DNA of 47,271 nucleotides from a virus (Duplodnaviria; Heunggongvirae; Uroviricota; Caudoviricetes). The position numbers were made by a program. Positions within the stretch are counted from its first letter, which is position 1, and the number at the start of each line of letters is the position of its first letter. Where the stretch lies: the IMG/VR virus record IMGVR_UViG_2839594473_000016; one strand, written 5' to 3'. Shown here piece after piece: positions 42,001 to 45,000 of this stretch.

Positions 42001-45000
42001 ATGGCTTACCCCCTTGCTGACTGGTTTTACCTGTGCCCTGACGTGCTGCACGTGACGGGCAAATTTCTGCTCCCACTGAACCTGCGTGAAAACCTTCCCC
42101 TCCGCCATCCAGTAATCCCGGAATGCGGCAAGCTCAGCAGGTGTAAACTCAGGCTCAGGCAGAGCCATACCCCACAATGCAGCCCGCTGTCGAAAATCCA
42201 GCGACGGCCGCCAGACACCAGTCATCGGAAATTTCCCGATCGGTTCGCTCAGGCCATCCGGGTATTCAGGTTCTGCTGTCTGCAACGGCGCGCCATTCGA
42301 CTCACTGGCTGGAGCACTCTCGCGCATGCGCGCGTTATGTGTGGGGTTTAATTCTTTATCTGTATCTGTATCTGTCGTGACTTGTCGTGACATATGCGTG
42401 ACGCGTCGTGACTCATCGTGACAATCAGTGTTCTGCTCCCGCAGTCTTTCCCGCTCCCGCTGCGCTCTCTTGCGCTCTGCCGGGGATTTTGCGGTTTGCG
42501 AAACATTACCGTTATCCTCCTTCATCACCTGGCGTTTTTCCCATCCGGAAATAAGATCGCCATCCAGAACTCGCCCCTGCATTGCATGCAAAATTGAATC
42601 AATCACGTCTTCCGTCACATCAAGCGCACTTGCTAAATCTTCCGTCGTGACATCAATGTGACCACGTAGTGACTCGCCGTGACATTTCGTGACATTTCGT
42701 GACGCACTCACCAGAAGGTGGATATACACCGCCATCACTGTTGCGATTGGCTGTCCTGAGACCCTGGCAATGGTTCGCCATTTGGGATCATTTGGCATGT
42801 CATGCCACAATCTGAGCCAGGCATTAGCCATACTCACCTCATCTGATACCGAACTTTACCCTCGAACATCCGGAAGAAATCCGGCATGAATATTGTTGGT
42901 CAATGCACGACAACAGCATTACCAGGCTGACCCCCACTGTTAGTCAGGGTGCCCCAGGCGATCGCCGCTGCGACAAAATCATCCACATCTTTCACCAGCC
43001 GATCCCTCCGTTCGACGATCTCACGGTAATATTCAGAGCTGTGACTGCGCATACGGGCCACCAGCAGAGGCGGCATTGCCTTTTCGATCGCCGGTAACAG
43101 AGCCTGCATTTTTTCAACAGCATCAGGGGTGTCTTTATCCAGCCAACGGAAAATTTTCTGGGTATTACGAGCCAGGGCTTCCGGATGGCTGTCGTCGTAC
43201 AGTTCCGGGAACGTCATCCCCAGTTCGAAATAAGTCCGGGCTATTTCAGCTGCAGGAACTTTCTCACCATCAGGATATGCCCAGGCATTCATCGCCATGC
43301 GGATGTGCTCATGTTTGATTTTCATGAATCATTTGCCTCTTGATGCTTCGGGTATGATCGTTTTCGTCATTTGGTTGCTTCATCGACATATTCTGCGAAT
43401 AACATGACGAGCGTCGTAAGTATGTCCAATCAACATCAGGACGAAGTTCTTCACACAGGACACCACCTTTTGTTGCTCGTTCAATCGCAGGACATCTCTC
43501 AGCAGGCAACTGACGTACACCTTTGATCCATTGATTTACGCTTGGAGGAGATACACCTAAAAGCCTAGCCATTGCTGATTGCCCACCGACAACAGCACAA
43601 GCTCGTTTGAATGAATAGTTATCTTTTTTCATCGAATGAACTCCAAAAAACACACAATAATATTAGGCTTAGCCTAATGCAATTGTCAATAGGCTATGCC
43701 TAACACTTCGAGAGTAGGCATTGCCTAATGCGATGCGCATAGGAGACTATTAAGCAATGCTTAGTGGTAAAGACTTAGGCCGAGCGATAGAGCAGGCCAT
43801 TAACAAAAAAATTGCATCAGGAGCCGTCAAATCAAAGGCGGAAATCGCACGTCATTTCAAAGTCCAACCACCATCAATCCATGACTGGATTAAGAAAGGT
43901 TCGATAAGTAAAGACAAACTTCCAGAACTATGGCGTTTCTTTTCTGATGTGGTTGGTCCAGAGCATTGGGGGCTTAACGAATACCCCATACCAACCCCAT
44001 CCACTTCAGATACAAAAAGTGAACTTTTAGACATAAACAGCCTTTATCAAGCCGCCTCTGATGAAAAAAGAGCAATTGTGGCTTTCCTCTTATCTGGAAA
44101 TGCTACGGAGCCTAGTTGGGTTGATCATGACGTTCGTGCCTACATTGCCGCAATGGAAATGAAGGTAGCTAACTATCTGAAAAATCAAGAATCAAAACGG
44201 AAAAGCCAGAACATCACCAAGACAGGAACTTAAACTTATATGGTCCGACGGGAAATTCCTAGTTCCCGTTAGTTAACTCCTACTACCTCTCCCACAAACC
44301 ATCACCTATTAGGTCGCACCCAAATCATTAGGCGTAGCCTATTGACAAGCAATTAGGCATTTCCTATAGTTTTCCCATACCAACCCATCCCGTCCCACAC
44401 AATACAGGGCAATACCTAGAGTTACCCGGCAGTGGTCAGGGATTAAGTAGCCAGCCCGAGGCGTAAGAACATGACGGCAGGGTTCAACTTTAACTATGCA
44501 GCAGGTTTTTGTTCCGCTACCCCGGCGTTAAGGGGATATGAGGTCAGCATGGATACTCTTGATCTTGGCAACAACGAATCTCTGGTGTGCGGCGTGTTTC
44601 CCAACCAGGACGGCACGTTCACCGCGATGACGTATACCAAAAGCAAAACGTTTAAAACCGAATCTGGCGCGCGTCGCTGGTTAGCAAGAAACTCTGACTA
44701 ATGAAATCTGGTAATTAAGGAATCCTCCACGGGGGGAGAGTGGTGCACACGCGCCGGACACAAGCAAGCATCCGGCATGCTCTTTAACAATCTGGATATC
44801 CATAACAGTAAAAATCTACAGATTGCCGTTCAGTTTTCTGGCCAACTCTTCAATAGATGGAGGTGATACGTAATCCGGATTTTTATTCATAAGAAACTGA
44901 TTTTCACAGTACAGGCACCTGCTTTTATGAAAAAATTCATATTCTCTAACCGGGAATGGCTGAAGTATCGATACTATCTTTTGTCCAAAACATTTTGGAC

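Follow-up and report, generated by a model that had tools for sequence, protein, structure and literature searches.

A Rac-type immunity cassette in a prophage of Escherichia coli O157:H7, with candidate RacR operators on both sides of the repressor gene

The RacR-YdaS-YdaT system of the Rac prophage of E. coli K-12 is the closest described relative of the locus considered here; this switch, with its repressor, operator and main promoter, was characterised between 2017 and 2025. The binding of RacR to its operators has been demonstrated by EMSA, ChIP and DNase I footprinting (PMC5700373, PMC9638921), with three complexes detected in EMSA and a GFP reporter used in addition to ChIP (PMC5700373). 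The operator consensus in K-12 is (T/A)TAGGC-n3-GCCTA(T/A), and an operator overlapping the start codon of racR has also been published (PMC9638921). The ydaS-ydaT promoter (PydaST) was mapped by primer extension and is abolished by mutagenesis of its -10 element (PMC9638921, PMC11879457). In size-exclusion chromatography, RacR runs as an octamer (PMC11014345). When RacR levels are lowered in K-12, expression of ydaG, ydaF, kilR, racC and other genes increases 40- to 70-fold or more (PMC6765115, PMC11014345, 2026 preprint), and the literature describes the RacR regulon as not characterised in detail.

The DNA analysed here (the window) is a stretch of 47,271 nucleotides from a Caudoviricetes record (IMGVR_UViG_2839594473_000016). 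Its immunity region is an already-characterised Rac-type switch, a near copy of that of K-12, to which it is 86% identical in DNA sequence over positions 43302-44536. The same six sites and both promoters are found in K-12 Rac: four proximal sites between racR and ydaS (centred at -87, -61, -36 and 0, counted from the ATG), PydaST with identical hexamers and spacer, and a distal pair with its own promoter beyond racR (Table 1). The two loci differ at proximal operator 3, which has one mismatch in K-12 and is perfect in the window. The repressor scores 246.8 bits against the NCBIfam RacR equivalog model NF049929 (cut-off 200 bits) and shares 92% identity with K-12 RacR across 158 aa. It has no match in Pfam, no S24 peptidase domain and no detectable match to cI families, and a PDB sequence search returned no solved relative. 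The earlier note on this DNA had called the repressor RacR-like rather than cI-like; judging from these scores it is RacR itself and not a cI homologue. The divergently oriented ydaS gene encodes a protein 85% identical to K-12 YdaS, matching YdaS_toxin (PF15943, E=3.8e-30) and P22_Cro. It is followed by a YdaT-family gene (PF06254, 2.6e-10) of the CP-933P type, the product being 87% identical to CP-933P YdaT and only 31% identical to K-12 YdaT. The YdaT box has one mismatch to TTGATT-N6-AATCAA and matches the K-12 reference box, ATGATT-n6-AATCAA (PMC11879457).

Table 1. Positions in the window of the genes, operators and promoters of the immunity region and its borders.
Feature	Position	Strand	Remarks
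YdaT box	43315-43332	-	ATGATT-CATGAA-AATCAA (minus strand); straddles ydaT start codon, at cassette left edge
ydaS	43309-43632	-	Cro-like regulator, 107 aa, first gene of rightward-equivalent early operon; PF15943
ydaS-ydaT promoter PydaST (PR equivalent)	43660-43689	-	TTGACA (43689-43684), 18 nt, TAATAT (43665-43660)
Proximal operator 1	43664-43676	unstranded	ATTAGGCTTAGCCTAAT; exact; within PydaST spacer, overlaps its -10
Proximal operator 2	43690-43702	unstranded	exact; adjoins PydaST -35
Proximal operator 3	43715-43727	unstranded	exact; in racR promoter region
Proximal operator 4	43751-43763	unstranded	TAAGCAATGCTTA; 2 mismatches; overlaps racR ATG (43757-43759)
racR	43757-44233	+	repressor, 158 aa; NCBIfam NF049929 equivalog
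Lone half-site TTAGGT	44309-44314	+	19 bp upstream of distal operator 1; kept in window and K-12
Distal operator 1	44329-44341	unstranded	ATTAGGCGTAGCCTATT; exact; adjoins distal promoter -35
Distal early promoter (PL equivalent), predicted	44342-44370	+	TTGACA (44342-44347), 17 nt, TATAGT (44365-44370)
Distal operator 2	44354-44366	unstranded	TAGGCATTTCCTA / ATTAGGCATTTCCTATA; 1 mismatch; in distal promoter spacer, overlaps -10
Leader and DUF1391 gene (44549-44701)	44377-44701	+	early-left operon start; PF07151

Four exact copies of TAGGC-N3-GCCTA are present in the 47-kb window, against 0.03 expected (100 shuffles), and all lie within positions 43664-44341, the rest of the window containing none. 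The earlier note had described three palindromes, 24-26 bp apart, on one side of racR and two more beyond it, and its count is matched by three exact copies with centre-to-centre spacings of 26 and 25 bp (proximal operators 1-3), and by one exact copy and one with a single mismatch, 25 bp apart, on the distal side. Its description of two lambda-style operator sets built on one palindrome is consistent with both sequence and conservation. Palindromes are present in the immunity regions of all the close homologues and most of the distant ones, which disposes of the possibility, raised in that note, that they might be missing there. Its suggestion of a distinct immunity specificity was mistaken: the specificity is that of Rac, with an operator consensus already footprinted in K-12 (PMC9638921), which the intergenic operators of the window fit, including the one on the racR start codon. 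Several elements had been overlooked: proximal operator 4, the YdaT box, the half-site at 44309 and another lone half-site, TTAGGC at 43775, inside racR.

Since the palindrome is the published RacR operator and the leftward promoter is PydaST, the right-hand (proximal) half of this system is already known, and the EMSA, footprinting and reporter experiments urged in the earlier note have been published for this side in K-12. The cro-side promoter that it had placed under the palindromes is identical to the mapped K-12 promoter in its hexamers and spacer length (TTGACA/18/TAATAT). The promoter scan as a whole gave two matches against 2.1 expected in shuffled sequences, which is not above chance; the backing for the two promoters comes from conservation and the published K-12 mapping rather than from match counts. 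In K-12 footprints, RacR protects the region equivalent to proximal operator 1 first (PMC9638921). Proximal operator 2 is present in 80/80 E. coli-type loci, and almost all homologues examined, among them 76 of the 80 Pseudomonas-type loci, have a site in the register of proximal operator 4; this operator is likely to be the site of autorepression. Proximal binding and repression by RacR have been shown in K-12, and the prophage in the window would be expected to behave in the same way, given the 92% protein identity and the conserved sites. Autoregulation may nevertheless differ in detail from that in K-12, because the equivalent of the PracR3 -10 element is GAGACT in the window and GAGAAT in K-12.

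The distal side is the less familiar part. Distal operator 1 starts 95 nt after the racR stop codon, and the promoter beside it, which the earlier note had recognised as near-consensus, rightward and overlapped by the distal copies, matches 11 of the 12 consensus positions, with a predicted start near 44377. Its hexamers are conserved across relatives together with the operator sites. A first scan of viral contigs yielded only near-identical E. coli copies, and divergent relatives among these contigs were reached by re-ranking around a Pseudomonas-phage sequence. Among E. coli-type viral contigs the distal pair is almost universal (78 of 80), its arms being fixed and its N3 and linker variable; distal operator 1 is conserved in K-12, in the same proportion of E. 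coli-type loci (78/80) and in the divergent relatives. In K-12 (NC_000913.3) the two distal sites are located at 1419655-1419667 and 1419630-1419642, and the predicted transcript start would fall at about 1419619-1419621 on the minus strand. Further carriers of the pair are Mixta, Proteus, a Pseudomonadota MAG, Klebsiella phage KpF5 and Achromobacter; in all of them the two sites are spaced by 25 bp, TTGACA follows, and the distance from the repressor stop codon is +94 to +1467 nt. Among distinct Pseudomonas-type loci, at least 20 of 36 have it, at +490 to +3260, and it was not found in about 16 of these 36, nor in the fetched flank of three relatives (L013, L015 and L017). Relatives keep the pair even when additional genes spanning 0.5-3.2 kb separate it from the repressor. 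Conservation is 0.85 in the distal block and about 0.5 in its flanks, and a pair of this kind appeared in 0/200 shuffled loci. Its occurrence in K-12 Rac, its conservation among divergent relatives and its place just within the right border of the cassette together suggest that the distal pair is a genuine operator over an early promoter. It also seems not to have been described before: no description was found in the accessible Rac and RacR literature, an older one being possible. It is apparently the only undescribed element here, and the locus represents no new immunity specificity.

The region as a whole is a swappable immunity cassette (positions 43332-44376, approximately) of a lambdoid prophage in E. 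coli O157:H7. Three heteroimmune relatives have DNA in common with the window only outside these limits, and each has its own repeat at both operator positions. Homology with them stops on the left at 43331/43333, at the YdaT box, and the right boundary, at 44376/44377, is 6 nt past the -10 element of the distal promoter. Beyond it, positions 44377-44701 are 88-92% identical in DNA to loci with other immunity cassettes. The cassette edges, one at the YdaT box and the other at the predicted distal transcript start, illustrate the way in which immunity modules are swapped on this backbone, and they bear on which O157 prophages repress each other.

CP-933P of O157:H7 has this backbone on both sides of its own cassette. 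Its PaaR2/YdaS/YdaT locus resembles the window in its YdaT and in its leader and DUF1391 gene (88% DNA identity), and has the same layout, PL933P having been described with the same repeats as the intergenic region of that prophage (PMC8630535). It differs in being a heteroimmune cassette, with the repressor PaaR2, the ParE2/PaaA2 toxin-antitoxin and repeats of the GTTTAGTAA type. The DicA/DicC system of Qin likewise has a short non-cleavable repressor and operators both in the divergent region and at the promoter (dicBp) of an operon starting with a DUF1391 gene, ydfA (PMC10448788), whereas its repressor and operator sequences are different and dicF/dicB are absent downstream in the window. 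RacR has been grouped with the Gifsy-type repressors GfoR, GfhR and GtgR, which are short, lack a cleavage domain and are inactivated by antirepressors (PMC3121763). Unlike those systems, the window has no exact LexA box (CTGT-N8-ACAG), within a stretch that may not span the whole prophage, and the one antirepressor candidate observed, an Ant protein of the P22 immI type encoded at 9517-10395, comes with a sar RNA. A relaxed LexA-box scan gave only three weak matches, all between 3 and 13 kb of the window.

The layout is also close to that of the lambda cI/Cro region, with divergent repressor and cro genes, multiple sites spaced by roughly 25 bp that cover PR and the repressor promoter, and a second operator set over an early promoter downstream of the repressor gene and in the same direction. 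Relatives, one of them with a RexA homologue, carry accessory genes between the repressor and the distal operator. By contrast with lambda, RacR lacks the S24 autocleavage domain and any detectable sequence match to cI families, the core is of the 5+3+5 type, and there are four proximal sites, one of them on the start codon, and two distal sites plus a half-site. A nut-like element and an N-type antiterminator were looked for downstream of the distal promoter of the window and not found; Rfam gave no family match there, and the leader is less structured than shuffled sequences (z=+1.88).

The best explanation of these observations taken together, to which we assign a probability of about 0.88, is a Rac-type immunity cassette in which RacR acts at both the proximal and the distal operators. 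RacR dimers would bind the 13-bp core TAGGC-N3-GCCTA, extending to the 17-bp palindrome ATTAGGC-N3-GCCTAAT. Occupation of two proximal sites, which bracket the -35 element and extend over the spacer and -10 element of the strong ydaS-ydaT promoter, would shut this promoter off, and binding at the two further proximal sites, over the racR promoters and start codon, would lead to autorepression at higher RacR levels. The distal side appears to mirror the proximal design, with a site, TTGACA, 6 nt and a site running into the -10 element, and RacR bound there would shut off the early-left promoter serving the DUF1391 gene and reading towards xis and int. This action at the distal pair is suggested by its conservation and its position in the cassette, and RacR would presumably also govern excision by way of the distal promoter. 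The conserved pair would then offer a direct explanation for early-left derepression and excision when RacR falls, although the derepression seen in K-12 could also be indirect, through YdaS or YdaT.

The distal pair might instead have arisen by duplication of the proximal block and survive as a relic, or might be a roadblock at which bound RacR ends racR transcription, in either case without being the operator of a promoter. BLAST does align the two blocks (82% between window 43672-43716 and the distal region of K-12), no experimentally mapped start site for the distal promoter was found in the accessible literature, and the early-left operon of this prophage is decayed, with a truncated exonuclease and an opposite-strand gene. 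On the other side, distant lineages with unalignable flanks keep both promoter hexamers along with the sites, and the pair stays at the cassette edge whatever cargo separates it from the repressor; at this spot heteroimmune cassettes, too, have an operator and a promoter of their own, and the promoter is documented for CP-933P (PL933P; PMC8630535) and Qin (dicBp; PMC10448788). We consider both alternatives improbable.

The notion that the palindromes are mainly operators of the Cro-like YdaS, with RacR recognising something else, is a little more improbable still. YdaS has a helix-turn-helix and reportedly competes with RacR within the intergenic region (PMC11014345), and the footprints of YdaS and PaaR2 overlap in CP-933P (PMC8630535), but purified K-12 RacR footprints these repeats on its own and forms a single complex with a 49-bp single-repeat fragment (PMC9638921, PMC5700373), and across gamma- and betaproteobacterial loci the palindrome tracks the RacR N-terminal domain, in which the PPSIHDWIKKG helix is nearly invariant. 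Use of the palindromes by both proteins is likely, and is compatible with RacR acting on both sides. There is next to no room for a third reading, in which the palindromes would form hairpins in RNA or DNA, as terminators or attenuators, and not protein-binding sites. One scan flagged 43678-43662 as terminator-like (7-bp stem, 3-nt loop), whereas the stems are short, a T-rich run follows only one of them, and the fixed 25-26 bp spacing and register to the promoter hexamers are typical of operators. The sites at 43690-43702 and 44329-44341 lie upstream of the -35 element of the promoter they flank, and this position, together with the protein binding shown by the published K-12 footprints, led us to reject hairpins as the explanation.

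A broader version of the RacR reading can be put forward tentatively, at somewhat under even odds. The distal pair and its promoter would be an undescribed part of the RacR regulon throughout the family; with RacR as an octamer, lambda-like looping over about 0.65 kb would stabilise repression; and one DNA-binding domain and operator code, with the same two-sided layout, would be common to the non-cleavable RacR of enterobacteria and the S24-cleavable repressors of Pseudomonas, Achromobacter and Aeromonas phages. Distant relatives with the same N-terminal domain as RacR carry Peptidase_S24. If this version is correct, immunity specificity is inherited separately from the mechanism of induction, and the gap between the repressor and the distal operators is a slot for defence and toxin genes. 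PADLOC gave no defence-system match for the ORF at 44816-45331, for RacR or for the gene in the slot of KpF5.

As a discovery, the locus carries little weight, the window copy being an allele, in an O157:H7 prophage, of a known switch. RacR proteins from different prophages and strains should repress each other's promoters, because their operators are identical. The prophage adjoins potC and has a much shorter early-left region than K-12 Rac, without recET, kilR and sieB. The published site of lethal cross-talk with the C.Csp231I regulator is also conserved here.

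The repressor of this switch is of the RacR type rather than cI-like, as the earlier note had proposed: it exceeds the cut-off of the NCBI curated RacR equivalog model (246.8 against 200 bits) and is 92% identical to RacR of the Escherichia coli K-12 Rac prophage. A Pfam search detected no domain in it, S24 peptidase included, and a sequence search of the PDB retrieved no solved relative. The protein encoded by the divergent Cro-like gene is 85% identical to K-12 YdaS. E. coli O157:H7 strain PA20 carries a lambdoid prophage, adjoining potC, to which the window is 100% identical; its integrase lies at the window's right end.

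Four exact copies of TAGGC-N3-GCCTA were observed, against 0.03 expected from shuffles of the entire 47-kb window, and a scan of the whole window found none outside these four positions. The arrangement described in the earlier note was recovered on both sides of the repressor gene: three exact proximal copies, at centre-to-centre spacings of 26 and 25 bp, accompany the leftward promoter toward the cro-like gene, and two distal copies, one exact and one with a single mismatch, are centred 25 bp apart at a rightward promoter directed away from the repressor gene's end. Most sites, flanks included, conform to the extended form ATTAGGC-N3-GCCTAAT. A degenerate fourth proximal site, two single half-site motifs (TTAGGC and TTAGGT) and a YdaT box had been overlooked. 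Promoter-like matches in the region are not above chance (2 observed, 2.1 expected), and support for both promoters therefore comes from other evidence. Their design is mirror-imaged, in that each has one site directly abutting the upstream edge of the -35 element and another that occupies the spacer and extends into the -10 element.

Features of the immunity region and of other elements in the window (window coordinates)
Feature	Position	Strand	Details
Ant antirepressor gene	9517-10395	minus	Bro-N + P22_AR_C; phrog_245, 1e-110
sar antisense RNA	10397-10463		Rfam RF00262, 66.7 bits
Arc-like ORF	10698-10808	minus	
Arc/Mnt-like ORF	10918-11172		
ALIL pseudoknot	16144-16260		frameshift element of IS3-family insertion sequence
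STnc100 sRNA	33931-34097		
sok antitoxin RNA	37721-37895		beside hokD
YdaT-family gene	42900-43325		after ydaS; PHROGs label: CII-like activator
YdaS-like, Cro-like gene	43309-43632		divergent from racR; PF15943, P22_Cro
YdaT box	43315-43332	minus	ATGATT-n6-AATCAA; straddles ydaT start codon
Promoter toward cro-like gene	43689-43684, 43665-43660	minus	TTGACA, 18 nt, TAATAT; consensus-like
Proximal palindrome	43664-43676		exact
Proximal palindrome	43690-43702		exact
Proximal palindrome	43715-43727		exact
Fourth proximal site	43751-43763		degenerate, TAAGCAATGCTTA; overlaps repressor ATG 43757-43759
racR repressor gene	43757-44233		158 aa; NCBI curated RacR equivalog model
Single TTAGGC	43775		within racR
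Single TTAGGT	44309		
Distal palindrome	44329-44341		exact
Distal promoter	44342-44347, 44365-44370	plus	TTGACA, 17 nt, TATAGT; consensus-like
Distal palindrome	44354-44366		one mismatch

TAGGC-N3-GCCTA is already known as the RacR operator. Three GCCTAA/TTAGGC repeats have been described in the 123-bp racR-ydaS intergenic region of K-12, where RacR forms three complexes with DNA in EMSA, binds in vivo (ChIP) and represses a ydaS promoter-GFP fusion (Krishnamurthi et al., 2017; PMC5700373). The Mruk laboratory mapped the transcription starts at this locus, identified a single ydaS promoter (TTGACA/TAATAT) abolished by mutation of its -10 element, obtained DNase I footprints of RacR, in which the lowest RacR concentration already protects the ydaS-promoter region, and defined both the monomer motif ATTAGGC and a set of named operators (consensus (T/A)TAGGC-n3-GCCTA(T/A)), one of which lies over the racR start codon (PMC9638921). 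Later studies reported four inverted repeats, an octameric RacR by elution and the excision of Rac on loss of RacR (PMC11014345), and defined YdaT boxes and a reverse promoter inside ydaS (PMC11879457). K-12 Rac has the same four proximal sites in the same register and the same ydaS promoter as the window; together with this characterisation, the match identifies the proximal half as an allele of a characterised system, for which the experiments proposed in the earlier note (EMSA, footprinting, promoter reporter) are already published in K-12. The lambda-style reading, with one palindrome in proximal and distal sets over promoters, is supported, and the suggestion of a distinct immunity specificity is not, the region being of the characterised Rac immunity type.

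The distal operator and promoter seem to be the only undescribed element. In K-12 Rac they read TAGGCATAGCCTA-TTGACA-...-TAGGCATTACCTA-TAGT, 104 nt past the racR stop; the accessible Rac/RacR literature makes no mention of a RacR site there, and older descriptions may exist. The block ATTAGGCnnnGCCTA-TTGACA-6 nt-TTAGGCnnnnCCTAATAT recurs in relatives with 57-64% RacR identity (Mixta, Proteus, a Pseudomonadota MAG and Klebsiella phage KpF5) and at Achromobacter loci, whose proteins share only the RacR N-terminal domain. Conservation across its columns is 0.85 and falls to about 0.5 on either side; shuffling gave 0.195 sites per locus, and the pair arose in 0 of 200 trials. It is present in 78 of 80 E. 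coli-type viral contigs, with fixed arms and a variable N3 and linker, and, at a spacing of 24-25 bp, in at least 20 of 36 distinct Pseudomonas-type loci. The distance from the repressor stop is 94-131 nt in the 158-161-aa forms, 771-1467 nt in KpF5 and Achromobacter and 490-3260 nt in Pseudomonas-type loci, the last three groups having unrelated genes in between. The pair is kept whatever the distance or intervening genes, and its inheritance therefore follows the repressor rather than neighbouring genes. Conservation, distance independence and cassette position indicate a putative working operator and promoter. In K-12, early-left genes such as ydaG, ydaF, kilR and racC rise in expression by 40-70-fold or more when RacR is lowered (PMC11014345, PMC6765115 and a 2026 preprint), which fits a distal operator but could be an indirect effect; one published account describes the RacR regulon, with the adjacent ydaFG operon as part of it, as lacking detailed characterisation (PMC11014345).

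Loci that retain the palindrome encode repressors with almost no variation in the N-terminal 73 residues, which include the PPSIHDWIKKG helix; the C-terminal halves diverge. Enterobacterial RacR ends in a short domain without a Pfam match, and the Achromobacter, Aeromonas and Pseudomonas-phage proteins in Peptidase_S24 (Pfam on loci L014, L005 and L017; inferred from protein length and sequence for L016 and L101-L180). The same DNA-binding domain and operators with or without this peptidase imply one immunity code with two induction mechanisms. In Pseudomonas-type loci the proximal plan again has three sites, whose outer base differs slightly (TAAGGC), and the start-codon site is retained in 76 of 80. 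Between the repressor and the distal pair lies a slot that corresponds in position to rexAB in lambda. Neither the window nor K-12 has a gene in it; elsewhere it holds a RexA homologue (one locus, 2.8e-58), Panacea/SocA, an AbiEii-like ATPase with a Dam methylase, Schlafen/AlbA_2, Fic/Doc or HSDR_N (loci L164, L121, L137, L144, L141, L169 and L004). An E. coli-type RacR locus, 92% identical and with all six sites, is also present on a contig of 5.2 kb (L008, JARKOR010000130.1) that is labelled Candidatus Nanosynbacter MAG and is probably mis-binned.

Comparison with three E. coli prophages that have this backbone but a different repressor (a LexA-family cI, the PaaR2-ParE2 type or a third kind) placed the limits of shared DNA at 43331/43333 on the left and 44376/44377 on the right, with homology to the window confined to the sequence outside them. 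The exchangeable cassette thus extends from inside the YdaT box, which coincides with its left recombination boundary, to 6 nt past the distal -10 element, about where distal transcription should start. Each heteroimmune cassette has its own repeat at both operator positions. A distal operator and promoter are an expected feature of such switches, already described for sister cassettes as PL933P in the PaaR2 cassette (PMC8630535) and as the DicA-repressed dicBp in Qin (PMC10448788). Homology to K-12 covers 43302-44536 (86% identity), and YdaT is 31% identical to its K-12 counterpart, against 87% to that accompanying the PaaR2 cassette. With RacR (92%) and YdaS (85%) of Rac type and YdaT of PaaR2 type, the prophage is a mosaic in which a CP-933P-like backbone carries a Rac immunity cassette.

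With RacR dimers bound at these promoter sites, RNA polymerase would be kept off both early promoters. At higher RacR levels, occupation of the remaining two proximal sites, which cover the racR promoters and the start codon, would confer negative autoregulation; published footprints agree with this order, protection appearing first at the ydaS promoter and later immediately upstream of racR. The distal promoter is followed by a 172-nt leader, a DUF1391 gene, a minus-strand ORF, a truncated exonuclease gene, xis and int, so its main consequence is probably control of excision, matching K-12 excision when RacR falls (PMC11014345). RacR lacks a cleavage domain, a scan of the window found no LexA box, and RacR has been grouped with repressors inactivated by antirepressors (PMC3121763). 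The Ant module (9517-11172), with its sar RNA and Arc/Mnt-like ORFs, resembles P22 immI and is a possible route for inactivating this non-cleavable repressor.

The leader (44377-44548) is 88-92% shared with prophages of other immunity cassettes, has 14 C and 1 G in its first 30 nt, folds more poorly than shuffled sequences (z=+1.88) and matches no known RNA family; it may be a Rho-loading region. The early-left region is much reduced. Within 44816-45853, at the sieB position of Rac, lies the minus-strand ORF (171 aa, phrog_1244, no PADLOC match), followed by the truncated pseudogene of a 3'-5' exonuclease. A site already reported as an off-target of the restriction-modification regulator C.Csp231I (ACTAAGCATTGCTTAAT, complementary strand) is conserved at 43749-43765, overlapping the start-codon operator, so that the lethal cross-talk of K-12 could apply to the O157 prophage.
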